Source: a virus. From it: a stretch of DNA of 30,079 nt. Positions 1,710 to 30,079 of this stretch are shown here, piece after piece. The DNA lies in the IMG/VR virus record IMGVR_UViG_3300045988_012809, positions 1 to 30,079 of that record. One strand, given 5' to 3'. The number at the start of each line of letters is the position of its first letter. Positions within the stretch are counted from its first letter, which is position 1. The notes below the pieces were generated by a model that was not told the origin of the DNA, did not search any database, and saw only the letters and a program-made list of their open reading frames with translations. A program made the position numbers and the translations under genes.

Positions 1710-2058
1710 TTGGTGGACTGCCGTGCTTTCAGCTGGAATCACGGCGGGATACGTAACCACTGTCGTACAGCTCTCGCCCGGCCCCGGCTATATGTTCTCC
1801 ATGCTCCGTCGCAAGCTGACCGTAAAAACCGAAAACCTTTCCAGCTCGCTCCCAACGTGGGCCAAGGATTACGCGGATAGTCTCGGGGAACTCGCCTATT
1901 GCGGTTGGTGTCTTAGCCCGTGGGTGTCGCTTCCGGTGTGGGCGATGGCAGCCAAGATCAACGGGGTACGGTTCGGAGTCAAGTGGGTGGCCGGGTGGAT
2001 TGTGGCCGGTGGCGTGGCCGCGTTCCTCCGCCACTCGGCTGAAACGGCGGTGGCGTGA
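1699..2058 (+). CDS. Multi-pass membrane protein (unknown function)
   Basis: ATG at 1699 is preceded by AGGAAAGGA. Hydrophobic segments include WWTAVLSAGITAGYV, WVSLPVWAMAA and VAGWIVAGGVAAF. The longer track ORF from 1558 has an implausible N-terminus. Confidence 0.6.
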   Translation: MKTNWWTAVLSAGITAGYVTTVVQLSPGPGYMFSMLRRKLTVKTENLSSSLPTWAKDYADSLGELAYCGWCLSPWVSLPVWAMAAKINGVRFGVKWVAGWIVAGGVAAFLRHSAETAVA

Positions 2059-2336
2059 TGTTCAGCAAACAACAGGTTCATGTGCTGTTGATTCTTTGGA
2101 TGGCTAAGCGTCCGCTTACCCATGAGGAAATCGAACGTATGGCGGTTTTAGCGAAATATGACGATACTCCGCAGGGATTGAGGACGCGCATGATCGAGCT
2201 TGAGCGTTCCGGTCATGTGTGCCGTGTCGATAGGGAGGGTGTAAACAGTCGGCACCGTCATTGCTGGCGTTTCGCGTTGACCGACGCCGGGCGTGAAGCC
2301 ATTAGTGAGCTGTTTGACGAAACGGAAACAATGTGA
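2055..2336 (+). CDS. Winged-helix DNA-binding protein (MarR/PadR-like fold, tentative)
   Basis: LLILWMAKRPLTHEEIERMA...RTRMIELERSGHVCRV resembles wHTH recognition helix plus wing. The start overlaps the upstream stop. Confidence 0.5.
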   Translation: MMFSKQQVHVLLILWMAKRPLTHEEIERMAVLAKYDDTPQGLRTRMIELERSGHVCRVDREGVNSRHRHCWRFALTDAGREAISELFDETETM

Positions 2337-2373: not shown

Positions 2374-2703
2374 ATGCGCAAGCAAAACAAAATCAAAACA
2401 GTAATCAACGGTCAAGAAGTCACCGTGGAACAAGACAGTCAGACCGGCCAGTTCTACACCCGGCAAACCGTCGGCAACATCCCAGTTGACTACACGACCA
2501 TCAGCGACAGCGTAACCATCGGCCAGTGCATCAAATACTGGCGGATACGCCACGGGTACTCACAAGCGGAACTAGCCGAACGAATCGGCGTAGCCGGCCA
2601 GAACGTCATCGCCATGTGGGAAAACGGACGCCGCAAACCACAAAAACAATACCGGTTGCGACTAGCCAAACAACTCGGCTATGACATTCTGGCGAAAGAC
2701 TAG
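2374..2703 (+). CDS. XRE-family HTH transcriptional regulator (Cro/CI-like)
   Basis: C-terminal HTH_3 signature IKYWRIRHGYSQAELAERIGVAGQNVIAMWENGRRKP. SD AGGAAGGTG lies upstream. Confidence 0.8.
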   Translation: MRKQNKIKTVINGQEVTVEQDSQTGQFYTRQTVGNIPVDYTTISDSVTIGQCIKYWRIRHGYSQAELAERIGVAGQNVIAMWENGRRKPQKQYRLRLAKQLGYDILAKD

Positions 2704-3364: not shown

Positions 3365-3373
3365 GCAAAGAAT

Positions 3374-3408
3374 AGCCCGGCGCCAGTCATCAAGACCAGT
3401 GCCGGGCT
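3374..3408. terminator. Imperfect GC-rich hairpin between convergent genes (candidate bidirectional terminator)
   Basis: agcccggc(gccagtc)atcaa(gaccagt)gccgggct. The outer 8 bp pair perfectly. On the minus strand it is followed by ATTCTTTGCTT. Confidence 0.45.
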
Positions 3409-3457
3409 AATTCATTCGGTCATCACACCATCGCTCGAAAGGAGCAACACCAGTGTA

Positions 3458-17207: not shown

Positions 17208-19291
17208 GATTCGACCACCTCGTAATCCTCATAGCACCGGCAGTTGGGGTGTCCGTTCGGTGTTTGCATACTCTCGAAGTTGTTCACGTAGGTTCTGCCG
17301 CCTATTTCTACGCTGGCGTTCTCAGCCATATACGTGTCATCCAATGCGATTCGATTGCCTTCCATGTGATTGCAGAATTCGCATACTTTTTCGTCGCCGC
17401 TGGTGCGCCAAACCTTGGCTAGTCGGATGCCGAGTGTTTCGCTGAGGTTGCGGGCGCTGTACAAGCTGCCGAGCCGTTGGGATTGCACAGTCTCACACCG
17501 GGCAATCAGTTCGGCGTGTTCGTTGCTCATGCGTTCGAGCGCTTCTCGGAGGTGTTCTGCGTCCCACTGGTCCACGTCGGCCCGGTTCAACAGTTCGAGC
17601 ACGTCGTCCGTAATGGTCTTGCTGGTGGACTTGGCGATGCTCCGCAAGTGTTCCACGTAGGCTTCACGCACGGTTGCGGGGAGTTCCGTCCAAAAGTAGA
17701 GTTGCCGCCAATCATCTGCGGTGTATCCCTCGATATTCACGGCGATGGAGCTTTCGGGGTGGACTTCAGCCCACATGGTAATGACCTGTTCCAGTTCGTA
17801 GCCGGTACGGCGTGCGTAGGCTGCGAGGTTGGTCATCAGTTCGTCTTCCACGTCGTTTATCCACTGGTCGCCGATGGCTTCCAGATCGTCGCGTAGCCCG
17901 TTCTTGGAGCGGCGTGCCATGCGGATTACGCGGTTCACGTAGGTGCGAGTGGCGGGGATGATACGGGTTTCGGTTGCCGTTTCCTGCGATTTGATATTAC
18001 GGCTATACCGTTTTGCGGCTACTGGGATACTTAGTGTCGGGGCCTGCTGGTGCAGGTCAAGACGCTTATACGAGTCGGGGAGTCCGAGCGCGTCCACGGC
18101 AGCCTCCAAACTGGCCCCCATGTTCAAAAGCTGGGTCAGCGAGTCGACACGTACCTTCTGTGTGTCGGCCTGCACCTTTGCTATGTCGGTTTGGGACGGC
18201 AGGTTGAGATCGAACGTGATGCCGTAGCCGAGTCCTCCGGTGATGCGGTCAAGTTCGAATTGCCATTTATCCCACACCGTCATGCACAACGGTTTAAGGG
18301 TGTTTTCAATGAACGCGCGTTCCGCCTGTTCGGCGTTGGCGTAGGTTTGCCCGTTATCGATGCCTCGAATGATGTCCGGGACTGCGAGCGCGTTCGACAG
18401 TCGGTTGTTTACCACGTCGTTCACGGTCTGCAAGTCTAGACTGTCGTTGGCGTTCTGGAACGGTACCCATACGAGTTTGCTGGTGGTGCTGGGCTTATGG
18501 GTCATGGGGTCAACCGGGATCATGTTATAGACGATTCCGTTGTTGTTGCCTGCACCTCGGAACGTGCTTTCGAGTCGGTCGCGGTTGCGCTGGAAGTCCT
18601 CAGTGTTTTCCGACACGATGCCGAGCATTCCAGCGGGTACGGCGTTGTTGCCGAAGAAGCCACGCTCATAGTCGGCGATCATATCGTCCACGTTCGCCCA
18701 CTTCTTCACCGTCATGGCTGGTGCGATGCCGCGCGTCGGGTCGTTGGGGTGCTGGCTGTAGCTGAGGGCGATTGTTTCGTTTCGGGAGAATTCGTAGGCT
18801 TGTTCGCCGTCGCCCAAGTCCATAGTGACGCGATGGTACCAGTCCGAGCGCGTGGAATTATACTGGCGACTGTTCGACGGTAGGAGCGTGTATCCGATGA
18901 TGTTCGTTGGGGTGATGTCTCCGCCCGGCCCGTTGCTTGTCCAGATCAGAACATCCAAGTGGGATTGGGTGAGGATGCTGGCGCAAACGATCTTGAGGAA
19001 CTCCAAGCACGAATAGGTGTCGTTGGGCGCGTAGAGTGCGGCCAGTGGTGCGGGGGGCGGGTCGATACGGCGGTTTTCTGAGTCCACGGCGTAGGGGATT
19101 ACCGTGCTGAACCTTTGCGCGATGGCGTTGACGTAGGGGAACACGTTGTCGTAAGTATCGTGCATGGGGATGGTGTTGCCGCCCATTGGCTGCCACATGT
19201 TCCCGCCCATTGGTGTGGGGGACGTGCTGGGCGCATGGTTACGGTCGAAAGCGCTCATAAACCCGTCACGGAGATTGTTCAGCAGGCTCAC
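17204..19291 (-). CDS. Portal protein fused to a MuF / SPP1 gp7-like minor head protein domain
   Basis: 695 aa, located directly after terL. The C-terminus KVCEFCNHMEGN...TPNGHPNCRCYEDYEV is the MuF-family signature. Confidence 0.85.
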   Translation of the reverse strand: MSLLNNLRDGFMSAFDRNHAPSTSPTPMGGNMWQPMGGNTIPMHDTYDNVFPYVNAIAQRFSTVIPYAVDSENRRIDPPPAPLAALYAPNDTYSCLEFLKIVCASILTQSHLDVLIWTSNGPGGDITPTNIIGYTLLPSNSRQYNSTRSDWYHRVTMDLGDGEQAYEFSRNETIALSYSQHPNDPTRGIAPAMTVKKWANVDDMIADYERGFFGNNAVPAGMLGIVSENTEDFQRNRDRLESTFRGAGNNNGIVYNMIPVDPMTHKPSTTSKLVWVPFQNANDSLDLQTVNDVVNNRLSNALAVPDIIRGIDNGQTYANAEQAERAFIENTLKPLCMTVWDKWQFELDRITGGLGYGITFDLNLPSQTDIAKVQADTQKVRVDSLTQLLNMGASLEAAVDALGLPDSYKRLDLHQQAPTLSIPVAAKRYSRNIKSQETATETRIIPATRTYVNRVIRMARRSKNGLRDDLEAIGDQWINDVEDELMTNLAAYARRTGYELEQVITMWAEVHPESSIAVNIEGYTADDWRQLYFWTELPATVREAYVEHLRSIAKSTSKTITDDVLELLNRADVDQWDAEHLREALERMSNEHAELIARCETVQSQRLGSLYSARNLSETLGIRLAKVWRTSGDEKVCEFCNHMEGNRIALDDTYMAENASVEIGGRTYVNNFESMQTPNGHPNCRCYEDYEVVES

Positions 19292-25949: not shown

Positions 25950-26395
25950 CAGAACACGTCCCATTCGTTGTCGGTCTGGTTGGATGAGTCGGTAGGGTCG
26001 AACTGGCCTGTTCCCGGCCATTGAGTGCCGGACTGCTGAGTCTGCTGGTTTTTCGCCTTGAGCAGGGCGAGACTAATGGTCGCGTGTTTGATGGTGAAGT
26101 CGGTGCGCGGCTGACCATGATTGTCGGTGCCGGTCTTCCATTTCAAGACTCCCTCGACTCGTACCGGTGTGCCCTTGCGCAACATGCGTCCGTAGGTTTC
26201 GGCAAGTCTCGGGTCATATTCGAAGATGGTTGCCCACATGGTGTCGTGGTCTACCCACTGTTTCGTGTTTTTGTCCATGTGGCCGCCTGTGGCGGCGACT
26301 CGGATAAGCATGTAGGGGGTGCCGTCGCTGGTCTGTTTGCGTTCGGGGTCTGCCGCCACGCGTGCGAGCGGTATCGTGATTCGGGGATCATTCAT
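25949..26395 (-). CDS. ssb: Single-stranded DNA-binding protein
   Basis: OB-fold-like N-terminus (ITIPLARVAADPE...GTPVRVEGVLKWKT), a Q/G/T-rich linker and an acidic tip DNEWDVF. Confidence 0.85.
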   Translation of the reverse strand: MNDPRITIPLARVAADPERKQTSDGTPYMLIRVAATGGHMDKNTKQWVDHDTMWATIFEYDPRLAETYGRMLRKGTPVRVEGVLKWKTGTDNHGQPRTDFTIKHATISLALLKAKNQQTQQSGTQWPGTGQFDPTDSSNQTDNEWDVF

Positions 26396-26570
26396 TGTTG
26401 ATTGTTTCTCCTATTGGTAGTGGTGTGATGTTGGGGTTGAAGTAGTAGCGGTTGCCTACCTTGATGTATGGCAGTCGTTTCTCTCGGCAGTATCTGCGGA
26501 CTGTTTGGATGTTGAGGTGCCAGCGTTCCGCGTATTGTTCCGTTGTTGCGGTGTAGTCTTTAGCGTTCAT
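26388..26570 (-). CDS. Excisionase/MerR-like HTH DNA-binding protein; first gene of the leftward operon
   Basis: AERWHLNIQTVRRYCREKRLPYIKVGNRYYF matches the HTH_17 / Xis-type pattern. Confidence 0.65.
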   Translation of the reverse strand: MNAKDYTATTEQYAERWHLNIQTVRRYCREKRLPYIKVGNRYYFNPNITPLPIGETINNE

Positions 26571-26576
26571 GATTTA

Positions 26577-26605
26577 AATATACATCAGATTGCGTTTGAT
26601 TGCAA
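26577..26605 (-). promoter_or_regulatory. Leftward promoter P-L: TTGCAA -17- TATATT, predicted leaderless
   Basis: -35 at 26605-26600 and -10 at 26582-26577. The A of the ATG at 26570 is the 7th nt after the -10 hexamer. Confidence 0.6.
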
Positions 26606-26628
26606 GTGGTGTCGCCGTGATATATAAT
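26600..26628 (+). promoter_or_regulatory. Rightward promoter P-R: TTGCAA -17- TATAAT
   Basis: It uses the same palindromic hexamer at 26600-26605 as its -35. The -10 is at 26623-26628. Confidence 0.6.
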
Positions 26629-26685
26629 AAATATGTATGCAAGGATAACGTTTAAATAAAAATCAAAGACAGTCAGAATAAAGTA

Positions 26686-26717
26686 AGCGCCTCCCTCGAG
26701 AGAATGAAGGAGGCGCT
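26686..26717. promoter_or_regulatory. 9-bp GC-rich hairpin in the replication gene leader
   Basis: agcgcctcc (14-nt loop) ggaggcgct. A T-rich tract follows only on the minus strand. Confidence 0.5.
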
Positions 26718-26735
26718 AACAGAAAGGATGGAAAC

Positions 26736-27617
26736 GTGTCCGATACGAGTATAGCACAGAACCCGGGTTTTTCCATGCTGCCGAATTGGGCGGTGGACGA
26801 TGACCGGTTGGGCGGCTACGACCTGCTGGTGTACATGGCGTTGATACGCCACGCCGACAACACCGGCGTCTGCTGGCCCAGCTTGGAGAGGCTGGCAAAG
26901 ATCGCGCGTTGCTCGCAGCCCACGGTGTCCAAGAGCCTCAACGTGCTCGAACAATTGGGGTACATCCGACGGGTCAAGTCCGATGGCAGGGCCAACCGGT
27001 ATCACGTCTCGCTGTGGAAGCCCACCCCAAAACCTGGTTATGACCATGCATCGACCCCAAAACCTGCTTTTGACCCCCCAAAACCTGCTTTTGACCCACC
27101 CCAAAACCTGCTTTTGACTAACAATACCCAAGAGAACAAAACCCAAGAACAATACTCGCGCGGAGAAGAAAAAATCACAGTCTCCTGCCATTCGGGGGAT
27201 ACTCTCAAGGCGCTTATGGGATTGTGGCCTAAGAAATGCAGGGTGTCCAACGAATTCATTCAGTGCTTCAATCAGGCGTTCGACGAGGTTGGTGCCGACG
27301 CGCTTATGAGGGCGGCGAAACGTTTCGTGGAATCGTGCGAGGGTACGCCGTTGCAGTATGTGCGGACTCTGCCCGTGTGGCTGGCTGACGTGGTTAATTG
27401 GAGGGGGCAGAAGCAGGAGAACCGCAGTGAAGCGCAGTTGTCGAATTGGATGGCCCGTAGGCTTCCTGATTCTATGGCCGCGGACGTGGAGATTGTTCTG
27501 CGGGCGAGACGCGCATATTGGGGTGGCCAAGGCGGTTTGATGGCGCTGGAACGGGAGTTCTTTCCGGACGGCACCGAACACGCCTCGATCCGACATACAA
27601 GGGAGCAACAGAGATGA
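26736..27617 (+). CDS. Replication initiator / replisome organiser with an N-terminal winged HTH (HTH_36-like)
   Basis: FSMLPNWAVDDDRLGGYDLLVYMALIRHADNTGVCWPSLERLAKIARCSQPTVSKSLNVLEQLGYIRR. GTG start. Contains internal DNA iterons. Confidence 0.7.
   Translation: MSDTSIAQNPGFSMLPNWAVDDDRLGGYDLLVYMALIRHADNTGVCWPSLERLAKIARCSQPTVSKSLNVLEQLGYIRRVKSDGRANRYHVSLWKPTPKPGYDHASTPKPAFDPPKPAFDPPQNLLLTNNTQENKTQEQYSRGEEKITVSCHSGDTLKALMGLWPKKCRVSNEFIQCFNQAFDEVGADALMRAAKRFVESCEGTPLQYVRTLPVWLADVVNWRGQKQENRSEAQLSNWMARRLPDSMAADVEIVLRARRAYWGGQGGLMALEREFFPDGTEHASIRHTREQQR
27025..27118 (+). repeat. Four direct 20-nt repeats CCCCAAAACCTG(C/G)TT(T/A)TGAC (iteron-like, candidate origin)
   Basis: Copies at 27025, 27055, 27076 and 27099. 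The last three are identical. Each contains CAAAA-n5-TTTTG dyad symmetry. Confidence 0.65.
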
Positions 27618-27991
27618 ACAACGCCAAAGAAATCACTCTCAAGCAAGTCCAAGACATGATTCACAGCATCGACACCAGTCTGATTCCAGAATGCCGTGAC
27701 TTCGACGCATACACCGAGACGGACGAGATATGGCGTATCGGAGACTACGGGTATGTTGACGCCGACGTGTACGAGCAGGCGTTCAGGGATTATGAGGAAC
27801 GTAACGGGGAGACCGAGTGGGCGCGCCCCATGTACGTTCTTGAGGGCAACCAGCCGAACCACCTCGAATACTTCGTGGAAGCGTACGATCTCGGCGGGAT
27901 GCCAATGCTGAACGGGCTTCTGGACGCCCAGTTCGACAACGGGAACGCGGATGAGGTGTATCTGACGAACGGCGAGGCATGGCCGATCTGA
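27614..27991 (+). CDS. Highly acidic 125-aa protein (unknown function)
   Basis: ATGA overlap with the rep stop. By eye, roughly 27 D/E against 7 K/R residues. Confidence 0.65.
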   Translation: MNNAKEITLKQVQDMIHSIDTSLIPECRDFDAYTETDEIWRIGDYGYVDADVYEQAFRDYEERNGETEWARPMYVLEGNQPNHLEYFVEAYDLGGMPMLNGLLDAQFDNGNADEVYLTNGEAWPI

Positions 27992-28001
27992 CTTGATGCA
28001 T

Positions 28002-28030
28002 GTCCTAGCGTCCTAGCCATACGTCCTAGC
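28002..28030 (+). repeat. Three exact GTCCTAGC octamers
   Basis: Copies at 28002-28009, 28010-28017 and 28023-28030. A degenerate copy ACGTCCGATTAGG lies at 28031-28043. Confidence 0.8.
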
Positions 28031-28073
28031 ACGTCCGATTAGGGCGCTGGAACATGTCCCCGCGTGTCGCTGA

Positions 28074-28112
28074 TTGCCTGACCCCACCATATGTGATATA
28101 TTATATATATCA
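28074..28112 (+). promoter_or_regulatory. Promoter P-B: TTGCCT -17- TGaTATATT plus conserved dyad
   Basis: -35 at 28074-28079, extended -10 at 28094-28102, 21-nt motif tgtgatatattatatatatca at 28092-28112. Confidence 0.6.
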
Positions 28113-28154
28113 AACAAACGGTTTGATCTTATACCATAAACGAGGAGTATCGAA

Positions 28155-28460
28155 ATGCGTAAAACACAATACTATGCCACTGCTCTCAAGGCAGCCGAAG
28201 CAGTACCGGTCATCACAAAAAAGCGTGCGGGAATCGAGGGCGTGGAATACGACATCGAGGAATACACAACGGCGGATGCGTATGATGATCCGTTTCCGCC
28301 GGCCGCGACGTGGTGCCCAGCATGGTTTGCCTATGGCAAGAGCTGGAAGACTCTTAAGGGTGCGCAACGCTTTTTGGCATTGCAGCTCCAATGTCACGGT
28401 AAGGGCCTTGCGGATTATGCGAGGCAGTTCCGCATCGTCGCCCGTAAGAGCGAGGCGTGA
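28155..28460 (+). CDS. Hypothetical protein
   Basis: SD GAGGAG lies 7 nt before the ATG. No recognisable motif. Confidence 0.65.
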   Translation: MRKTQYYATALKAAEAVPVITKKRAGIEGVEYDIEEYTTADAYDDPFPPAATWCPAWFAYGKSWKTLKGAQRFLALQLQCHGKGLADYARQFRIVARKSEA

Positions 28461-28521
28461 AGGCTGCCGAGATTGACGCTACCGCCCCCCCCAAGCAATG
28501 CCGAGAAATACAGACATCAGT

Positions 28522-28560
28522 TTGCAACATCACACAACATGTGATATACTTTATATATCA
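28522..28560 (+). promoter_or_regulatory. Promoter P-C: TTGCAA -17- TGaTATACT plus conserved dyad
   Basis: -35 at 28522-28527, extended -10 at 28542-28550, motif tgtgatatactttatatatca at 28540-28560. Confidence 0.6.
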
Positions 28561-28583: not shown

Positions 28584-29210
28584 GTGATGGCAACCAACAA
28601 CCTAAGTAACAAGTTCATGCGGGTACTCAACGAAGTCCCCAACTTCGTCACCGACGAAACCGCGCAGGCAGGCAAAAAGACTTACAAGTACCTCAACCTC
28701 GCCACGATACTCAAGACCATCAAACCGGTTTTCGAGAAGTACGGGCTGGCATTCAGCCAGCGCGTCACGTTCGACAACACGGGAGAAGCGCGACAGGTCA
28801 TCGGAACAGTAGAAACCATCATATTCGACGATGAAGAACAGATGGTGGCCTGCTCCTACCCGTTCTTCGTGACCGGCGACCCCCAGCAGGTCGGCAGCGC
28901 AATCACCTACGCACGCCGCTACAGTCTCTACGCGGTATTGGGCATTTTCCCGGACAAGGACGATGACGGCGCGTATGCCAAACAACAATACGAAACCGCA
29001 GACCGTACCATCAGCGTCAACCAGTACGCCGATCTTGTCAAGGCGATGAACGCACACAACATCCCATCCGAGTCGCGCGGCGAATACATCAACAGCATCC
29101 TGAACCGTCAGGTCAGGGGATGGAAGGAACTCACGCAAACCGATTTCCGGAATCTGATGGACGGACTCACGGAAACCGATTTCCGGAATCTGATGAACTC
29201 AGCCAACTGA
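28584..29210 (+). CDS. erf: ERF-family single-strand annealing protein
   Basis: KYLNLATILKTIKPVFEKYGL...QQVGSAITYARRYSLYAVLGIFPDKDDDG (ERF hallmark). Starts at GTG 28584 or ATG 28587. Confidence 0.85.
   Translation: MMATNNLSNKFMRVLNEVPNFVTDETAQAGKKTYKYLNLATILKTIKPVFEKYGLAFSQRVTFDNTGEARQVIGTVETIIFDDEEQMVACSYPFFVTGDPQQVGSAITYARRYSLYAVLGIFPDKDDDGAYAKQQYETADRTISVNQYADLVKAMNAHNIPSESRGEYINSILNRQVRGWKELTQTDFRNLMDGLTETDFRNLMNSAN
29129..29195 (+). repeat. Tandem duplication with 36-nt period (31-nt cores, one mismatch) inside the erf 3' end
   Basis: actcacgcaaaccgatttccggaatctgatg at 29129-29159 and actcacggaaaccgatttccggaatctgatg at 29165-29195. They encode LTQTDFRNLMDG / LTETDFRNLMNS. Confidence 0.9.
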
Positions 29211-29979: not shown

Positions 29980-29999
29980 TTTTTCCGATACACGCCATG

Positions 30000-30039
30000 T
30001 TGCTCAACCCCACCACATTGTGATATATTATATATATCA
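30000..30039 (+). promoter_or_regulatory. Promoter P-A: TTGCTC -18- TGaTATATT plus conserved dyad; drives the exonuclease operon across the junction
   Basis: -35 at 30000-30005, extended -10 at 30021-30029, motif tgtgatatattatatatatca at 30019-30039. This motif is identical to the P-B copy. Confidence 0.55.
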
Positions 30040-30079
30040 GGCATGGTGCTTGATATATGACCGAAGGAGTCGAACACAA
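30025..30079. repeat. Right copy of the 55-nt terminal overlap (identical to 1-55)
   Basis: Same 55-mer as nt 1-55. It duplicates the 5' end of the exonuclease gene and part of its promoter. Confidence 0.95.

Follow-up and report, generated by a model that had tools for sequence, protein, structure and literature searches.

A two-fold symmetric box in the early promoters of an apparently virulent phage, and its probable role as the operator of an XRE-family regulator

What kind of site is a box that recurs, nearly unchanged and with two-fold symmetry, at the early promoters of a small phage genome? The question arises in the IMG/VR virus record IMGVR_UViG_3300045988_012809, of which positions 1 to 30,079 form the window analysed here (30,079 nucleotides; coordinates refer to it unless another sequence is named). 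A preliminary description had drawn attention to four promoters in this window, each overlapped by a dyad that was taken to be an operator for a dimeric regulator. The account that we favour, with somewhat better than even confidence, is that a 19-bp two-fold operator is built into the early promoters of the phage, and that a dimer of a phage-encoded XRE-family protein represses the whole early arm through it.

The sequence TGTGATATNNTNTATATATCA occurs exactly four times, at 2332-2352 (copy D), 28092-28112 (copy B), 28540-28560 (copy C) and 30019-30039 (copy A), always on the + strand, so the family of four that had been described is real. With up to three mismatches there are five matches, the fifth being a palindromic self-match of copy B, and in shuffled sequence the mean was 0.03 matches, with none of 100 shuffles reaching five. 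The dyad itself, TGATAT-N7-ATATCA, is 19 bp long; in copies A to D it extends from about −15 to +4 and is centred near −6. A search for this core returned the same four sites and, when two mismatches were allowed, one more at 26618-26636. The heptamer TATATCA is found 11 times in the window (2.0 expected), every time within the five cassettes, and never in the remaining ~23 kb outside the 6.6-kb early arm.

Every copy contains an extended −10 element, as had been claimed, which reads TGATATATT in two copies, TGATATACT in one and TGATATGAT in one; TRTG stands upstream of the −10 in most copies. The −35 elements and spacers had likewise been read correctly. A promoter scanner listed TTGCCT-17, TTGCAA-17 and TTGACG-17, and direct reading confirmed TTGCTC-18 for copy A, the weakest −35 among the four, which matches TTGACA at only three of six positions and so was not listed by the scanner. 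The string accccacca is indeed common to copies A and B.

Promoter A (30000-30039, + strand) has its −35 TTGCTC at 30000-30005, an 18-nt spacer, TG at 30021-30022, −10 TATATT at 30024-30029, the right arm ATATCA at 30034-30039 and a predicted +1 at A30036. It serves the operon of a YqaJ-like exonuclease (gene start 150), and its bases 30025-30039 recur at 1-15 as a circular overlap. Promoter B (28074-28112, + strand; −35 TTGCCT at 28074-28079, 17-nt spacer, TG at 28094-28095, −10 TATATT at 28097-28102, right arm at 28107-28112, predicted +1 at A28109) serves the gene at 28155-28460. Promoter C (28522-28560, + strand; −35 TTGCAA at 28522-28527, 17-nt spacer, TG, −10 TATACT at 28545-28550, right arm at 28555-28560, predicted +1 at A28557) serves the ERF gene, whose start is most likely the ATG at 28587, 26 nt past box C, and two genes beyond it. 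Promoter D (2314-2354, + strand; −35 TTGACG at 2314-2319, 17-nt spacer, TG, −10 TATGAT at 2337-2342, right arm at 2347-2352, predicted +1 at A2349) serves the XRE gene and contains the longest palindrome, TGTGATAT-N7-ATATCACA (2332-2354), with 8-bp arms. Its −35 and spacer lie inside the upstream gene at 2055-2336, the TGA stop of which (2334-2336) falls inside the box. A fifth, degenerate copy, cgTGATATATAATAAATATGT (26616-26636, + strand), belongs to a promoter at 26600-26636 (TTGCAA-17-TATAAT) before the replication gene; its left arm TGATAT is intact and its right arm is ATATGT (four of six positions). This promoter lies in a divergent control region (26577-26628) in which the palindromic TTGCAA at 26600-26605 is the −35 both of the rightward replication-gene promoter and of a leftward one, TTGCAA-17-TATATT.

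Judged by sequence, then, the boxes are extended −10 promoters of the sigma-70/sigmaA type, as first proposed: their orientation is that of early genes with Shine-Dalgarno (SD) sites, and they recur at equivalent places in ~100 related contigs. Each copy lies on the early strand and precedes an SD site or start codon by 21-134 nt. In Bifidobacterium breve, host promoters follow a TTGACA-17-TATAAT consensus and no start-site motif is reported (PMC5746004); the −35 and −10 elements of the boxes agree with that consensus. We think it fairly probable, jointly with the operator reading, that these early promoters are strong, near-identical and read by the host housekeeping sigma factor, with transcription predicted to start at the A of ATCA.

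A scan of IMG/VR confirmed that the motif is kept in related phages, ~100 uncultured contigs carrying the box at equivalent gene boundaries. The exact box is present in 117 IMG/VR stretches, 96 of them G+C-rich and mostly from 28-33 kb contigs of the same family, with one to four copies in each; the other matches are ordinary TGTGATATAAT-type promoters in AT-rich genomes. Promoters were also picked blind to the right arm, by the pattern TTGnnn-N13-15-TGnTAnnnT alone, in 66 oriented loci of the main clade. ATATCA falls exactly at box positions 16-21 in 212 of the 259 unique candidates, and the remainder are mostly recurring sequences that resemble chance matches inside genes. In a set of 167 unique cores, TATATCA varies as little as the −10 does and 163 have A at position 5; positions 12-14 and 22 onward are variable. 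Paralogous promoter classes that the window does not contain (TGTGATATAATAAATATATCA and AGGGATATAATGGATATATCA) follow the same pattern. No locus with multiple copies of the box was found in 185,579 species-representative bacterial and archaeal genomes, which yielded 97 scattered single matches, mostly in Firmicutes, and neither a host assignment nor a sign of a host regulon. The chromosome of Bombiscardovia coagulans, a bee-gut member of the Bifidobacteriaceae, has a single TGTGATATCATTTATATATCA copy (L174, 6339-6359), which may be a chance match or a host promoter of similar design.

Is the symmetry selected? The overlapping dyad behaves like an operator at the level of sequence, as had been suggested, in that its arms change together across clades, in the same register, and stay complementary. 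In the Bifidobacterium asteroides phages BlindUri1 and BlindBasel1 the site is TGTTAT-N7-ATAACA at three promoters each (TGTTATACTGATGATAACA, TGTTATACTGATACTAACA and TGTTACTATGTTAATAACA). The same form is perfect at four promoters of the relative L301 and at one of L299, which has another copy with n = G, and L300 has the arms TGTTAT-N7-GTAACA. In L302 the site is TGGTAG-N7-CTACCA, twice: the third −10 base has changed, and its partner has changed to match. L305 and L120 retain TGATAT/ATATCA. Over 45 promoters from 11 clades, the pair formed by positions 5 and 19 is A-T in 25, T-A in 11, G-C in two and something else in seven, and the pair 8-16 includes two cases of G-C. The covariation score is 0.183, compared with 0.078 ± 0.013 in shuffles, a control that ignores the relatedness of the clades; none of 500 shuffles reached the observed value, and every slid register scored lower. 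From these patterns we consider that the dyad is probably selected rather than a by-product of TA-richness.

Other readings were discarded. A second dyad, GCATAT-N7-ATATGC, at the replication-gene promoter of relatives was dropped because the (TA)n between its ends varies in length. Copy D was considered as a CRP-like TGTGA...TCACA site and rejected, its spacing being 13 and not the 6 of CRP sites, and the box bears no resemblance to the actinobacterial LexA box.

The right arm may also take part in an RNA structure. A UCARGC-N5/6-GCYUGA stem-loop, beginning with ATCA at predicted +2, is present in cassettes A and B and in about one-third of the promoter instances of relatives. Stem-loop A (30036-30054, + strand, also at 12-30 through the circular overlap) is AUCAGGC-N5-GCUUGAU and stem-loop B (28109-28127, + strand) is AUCAAAC-AAACG-GUUUGAU, each at the predicted 5' end of its transcript. 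Among 37 distinct sequences, 89% of cells are paired over the seven pairs (stem 2-7/13-18); two pairs show compensatory AU/GC changes, and there are also GU intermediates, which indicate structure at the RNA level. Stem-loops A and B would fit 5'-terminal mRNA stabilisers, and a stem-loop beginning at predicted +2 gives indirect support for a start at the A of ATCA. When the four leaders are folded as single sequences the z-scores are unremarkable (−0.3 to −1.9), and the 5' ends of leaders C and D can pair weakly with the SD/start region. Downstream of box A there is a third TGATATAT copy (30050-30057 = 26-33), which forms with the right arm a 12-nt inverted repeat (ATATATCAGGCA / TGCTTGATATAT), longer than the RNA stem requires; this copy may be an extra half-site. 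The replication-gene leader has a strong hairpin of its own (26683-26720; whole-leader z = −4.3) that buries an SD-like GAAGGAGG. It is kept in relatives, with sequence varying in and around the loop, and its opposite strand reads like a terminator.

Which protein would bind the dyad? The best candidate is the XRE-family regulator encoded at 2374-2703 (+ strand), since a homologue was found in every clade whose early arm was fully readable. The protein has 109 amino acids, with an N-terminal four-stranded beta domain and a C-terminal HTH_3 domain (E = 9e-11). Homologues with this N-terminal domain and C-terminal helix-turn-helix (HTH) occur in the main, 80%, 85% and 66% clades (42% identity in the last), in BlindUri1 (MT006234.1, 8200-8613) and BlindBasel1, and in L300, L301, L302 and L305. 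In a structural model (pLDDT 77) four beta strands are followed by the helical HTH domain, which superposes on the dimeric palindrome binders C.AhdI, HipB, SinR and P22 c2 with E-values of 0.05 or worse, a likeness of generic XRE HTH folds only. A fold search gave a weak HicB-like resemblance for the beta domain, and a sequence search with the protein matched 434 repressor and SinR. The XRE gene's own promoter, D, has the best palindrome of the set. In the 66% clade the XRE gene belongs to the exonuclease operon, and the palindrome at the promoter of this operon extends to AGCTGATAT-N7-ATATCAGCT in some members and takes the compensatory form GTTGATAT-N7-ATATCAAC in another. Autoregulation would fit both of these palindromes. 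BlindUri1 and L301 have in common the recognition-helix motif RYWE and the operator type, and L302 differs in both.

Two further proteins are candidates. The small protein encoded at 2055-2336 (+ strand), called a winged-helix protein in the preliminary description, has no significant Pfam match, and a sequence search against solved structures returned nothing useful; it is kept in the main and 66% clades, and no homologue was detected in BlindUri1. The third is a 60-amino-acid HTH_17 (Xis/MerR-like) protein encoded at 26388-26570 (− strand), the first gene of a long leftward operon and apparently leaderless (TATATT, 6 nt, ATG), with homologues in most clades examined.

On the operator reading, host RNA polymerase would fire all five rightward promoters upon infection and express the functions for replication and ERF/exonuclease recombination, small genes of unknown function, the XRE protein and an HNH endonuclease. 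The XRE protein, made from the last of these promoters, would bind the dyads as a dimer, the left half of each operator being the extended −10 itself and the right half covering the start site. Repressors act at just such a position, from −10 to +4. Bound there, the XRE protein would block polymerase at the −10/start region and turn off the entire early arm, its own operon included. In cassettes A and B the conserved ATCA would serve in addition as the 5' arm of the stem-loop, probably stabilising the mRNA.

Several observations weigh against this reading, and they bear first on whether the box needs any binder other than RNA polymerase. It could be simply an extended −10 promoter that has been optimised, its discriminator AT-rich and its YA-N-CA start conserved, with the symmetry a by-product and the right arm kept for start-site choice, for promoter escape and for a 5' stem that guards the mRNA from 5'-end-dependent RNases. 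Promoter function dictates most of the left arm (TG + n + TAT), and a (TA)n sequence is its own complement, which limits the independent symmetry signal to a few positions; because the clades are related, there are perhaps only two or three independent arm switches. In the 66% clade position 5 is A, T, C or G in orthologous promoters, position 19 is always T and the right arms are ATATCA, ACATCA or ACATAC. In L304 the arms are TGCTAT...ATATCA; in L303 two of the three promoters carry ATATCG. Two related clades, the 66% clade and L304, thus lack arm complementarity at position 5, varying it uncompensated and keeping A[TC]ATCA, and the 66% clade weakens any covariation argument made from BlindUri1 alone. 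The right arm may double as the 5' arm of the conserved RNA stem-loop, whose paired cells and compensatory changes, like the possible pairing of transcripts C and D with their own SD/start regions, count in favour of promoter and leader function alone. Left halves of the TGTGATATAAT type also occur as ordinary extended −10 promoters in low-GC bacteria and phages unrelated to this family, and in relatives a (TA)n run of varying length comes after the replication-gene promoter, evidence of a general preference for TA-rich discriminators. What a start-region element gives no reason for is the switching among TGATAT/ATATCA, TGTTAT/ATAACA and TGGTAG/CTACCA, complementary on both sides and in one case altering a −10 base. 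Nor does it account for the invariance of ATATCA in cassettes with and without a local hairpin, for palindromes whose arms reach 8-9 bp, beyond the promoter elements and the hairpin, or for a start-region motif of a kind not reported for B. breve host promoters (PMC5746004). We regard promoter function alone as a minority possibility, which keeps its share of the probability mainly because the right arm has a second, stem-loop role.

If the dyad is an operator, its binder could still be the 2055-2336 product, the HTH_17 protein or a host regulator, with the XRE protein doing something else. The assignment to XRE is circumstantial, since other DNA-binding candidates, notably HTH_17, are co-inherited, and in L305 the recognition helix differs although the operator is still TGATAT/ATATCA. 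The second motif near the −35, GGCGTGTCGC (see below), means that a site for at least one further factor may exist. However, HTH_17 proteins of this 60-amino-acid Xis/MerR type usually bind as monomers or to direct repeats, whereas the XRE family are the classic dimeric binders of palindromes. The 2055-2336 protein went undetected in BlindUri1, whose dyads are clear. A single host factor is argued against by arms that differ between phage clades, and none of the 185,579 representative genomes has the exact box in multiple copies. We consider a binder other than XRE improbable. A last account, that the cassettes are chiefly recombination joints, shared 40-100 bp boundaries for module exchange with promoter features secondary, seems to us very unlikely. 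In relatives the same upstream block, box and leader do precede different genes, and in some genomes the 50-nt flanks upstream of three copies are identical. But joints would leave the fixed promoter geometry, the strand bias, the SD sites and start codons and the cross-clade covariation of the arms unexplained; the four copies in the window share little beyond the ~40-bp promoter; and the exchange of modules at shared promoters is more plausibly an outcome of the cassettes than their function.

The operator reading also bears on how the early arm is organised, and here two earlier claims were not borne out. The boxes had been thought to divide the arm into separately controlled units. The identical box stands at all of the units, which implies joint control, and no + strand intrinsic terminator lies between them, so the promoters appear to reinforce one jointly controlled arm rather than independent units. 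The sole strong terminator of the arm is at 3373-3409, where it closes the whole arm; this very stable hairpin (whole-stretch z = −7.4) faces the convergent lysis genes and probably terminates transcription from both sides. The copies had been placed 17-42 nt before a start codon, which for copy A, at 17 nt, is the ATG at 30057 (= 33). In every homologue of the downstream exonuclease the start is the ATG equivalent to 150, and some relatives have a stop two codons after the upstream ATG, which we therefore rejected as the exonuclease start. The leader of promoter A is accordingly ~134 nt long.

Other motifs cluster near the promoters. A GGCGTGTCGC-type 10-mer lies just upstream of the promoter B −35 (28061-28070, + strand), and a partial inverted copy, ACACGCC, precedes promoter A at 29991-29997. 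In most clades GGCGTGTCGC is found, in either orientation, upstream of or over the −35 of early promoters (for example at ~1850, 5000, 8830 and 12160 in L119, and in L302, L303 and L305), and in the 66% clade it often supplies the 5' strand of a terminator-like hairpin that immediately precedes the promoter. In the window GCGTGTCGC is not enriched above chance when one mismatch is allowed, and its significance comes only from its position in relatives. We treat GGCGTGTCGC as a candidate for a second conserved protein site. A palindrome, GGGACATGTCCC (in the window GGAACATGTCCC, 28047-28058), lies some 50-60 nt before several of the promoter copies and in some relatives recurs together with a 50-nt upstream block. 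The stretch from the gene end at 27991 to promoter B contains GTCCTAGC as three to four short repeats (28002-28036); relatives have 'gtcctag'-like copies.

What sort of phage carries these promoters? Window bases 1-55 are identical to 30025-30079, and because of this 55-nt terminal direct repeat we take the window to be a circular 30,024-bp assembly with copy A spanning the junction. Family scans gave a small siphovirus-like gene set. The rightward early arm (26736 through the junction to 3364) encodes an HTH_36 replication initiator, ERF, the YqaJ-like exonuclease, small genes of unknown function, the XRE regulator and an HNH-like protein. The leftward arm of 23 kb begins at 26570 and encodes the HTH_17 protein, SSB, RusA, terminase, portal, a protease-capsid fusion, tape measure, tail proteins and a GH25-LysM lysin. 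We found no integrase or recombinase among the open reading frames scanned, which included every one of at least 300 amino acids, and saw no prophage copy in the 185,579 representative genomes scanned for the box. The phage is apparently virulent.

A megablast search with the early arm found no nucleotide similarity to known phages. By protein search the nearest cultured relatives are BlindUri1 and BlindBasel1, with 51% identity in the terminase and the same architecture, which makes the host probably a member of the Bifidobacteriaceae. No close relatives of BlindUri1 were found in IMG/VR. The phage family is abundant in public metagenomes, to judge from the exonuclease, which has more than 1,300 homologues, some clusters holding over 1,000 member sequences.

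By analogy with known systems, an element of this kind is already familiar in phages, the closest being the conserved inverted repeats (CIRs) of the Streptomyces phage phiC31 and the operators of lambdoid phages, 434 and P22. As in phiC31, many near-identical intergenic inverted repeats are tied to highly similar early promoters; on the operator reading, one regulator would likewise govern several early operons and one copy would autoregulate the regulator gene. However, phiC31 is temperate and integrates, whereas no integrase was found here; its repressors are isoforms from the c gene and not an XRE protein of this type; and the CIR is a 17-bp site of other sequence and placement, whereas here the left half is the extended −10. 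The operators for cI, Cro and c2 in the lambdoid group are likewise two-fold sites, of 14-19 bp, over core promoter elements, where HTH_3 dimers bind, and operator and repressor specificities diverge together between relatives (heteroimmunity); as noted above, the XRE model superposes on P22 c2 and the sequence matches 434 repressor. Unlike OR and OL, which are tripartite and belong to two promoters, the site here is a single dyad at each of five dispersed promoters. The HTH is C-terminal, behind a small beta domain, no lysogeny module was seen, and the arm centres are 13 bp apart rather than ~10.

Other parallels are looser. The preliminary description had likened the boxes to stoperators, and they do resemble those of cluster A mycobacteriophages such as L5 and Bxb1 in being a short repressor-type site repeated in the genome of an actinobacterial phage. 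The analogy fails beyond that: stoperators are asymmetric 13-14 bp sites in 20-30 or more copies, genome-wide and mostly away from promoters, which act on elongation in an orientation-dependent way in temperate phages, whereas the site here is symmetric, with five copies, all at early promoters and none elsewhere, in a phage for which no integrase was found. The C1 operators of P1 resemble the boxes as many dispersed sites for one repressor, each overlapping the promoter of a separate operon, but they are asymmetric 17-mers and P1 is a temperate plasmid prophage. The leader stem-loops recall the 5' stabilisers of the Escherichia coli ompA and Bacillus subtilis aprE leaders and of phage SP82, in which a short hairpin 1-2 nt from the 5' end is followed by an SD sequence; in our case the 5' end is a predicted one, of the four cassettes A and B have the hairpin, and the stem is kept with compensatory changes. 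Particular to this system are a left half that is the extended −10, a centre near −6, an apparently virulent phage and an arm specificity that has switched between clades.

Taken further, and only tentatively, the pattern could mean that in these integrase-less, apparently virulent Bifidobacterium-type gut phages one autoregulated XRE protein silences all early promoters, and that operator and regulator specificity have diverged in step (TGATAT, TGTTAT, TGGTAG). If so, related phages would be insulated from one another, or exclude one another, in co-infection, a condition like heteroimmunity without lysogeny. Bifidobacterial phages are poorly understood and virulent ones hardly known, and the family described here is very common in public metagenomes. 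If the operator reading holds, five promoters, one operator type and one candidate regulator would make up a complete and testable early transcription map for this group. The clades would also offer a natural series of specificity switches, in which an HTH protein and its site co-evolve with one half of the site locked by the promoter, and the genetic toolkit for bifidobacteria could gain compact strong promoters with 5' stabiliser leaders, along with a repressor to match.

Some minor features of the genomes deserve mention. The replication-initiator gene (26736-27617) contains four direct repeats of ~23-24 nt (CCCACCCCAAAACCTGCTTTTGAC) at 27021-27118, which look like iterons and probably form the origin, an arrangement known from the lambda O gene. 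The ERF gene has a 36-nt tandem duplication near its 3' end (29129-29198), by which the peptide T-[QE]-TDFRNLM is repeated. The L304 contig carries a duplicated block of ~6.4 kb that is probably a concatemer or an assembly artefact. Accessory genes differ by clade: L305 has a reverse transcriptase (RVT_1) at 17269-18444, and the 66% clade a Bro-N/ANT protein (188-1354 in L119).

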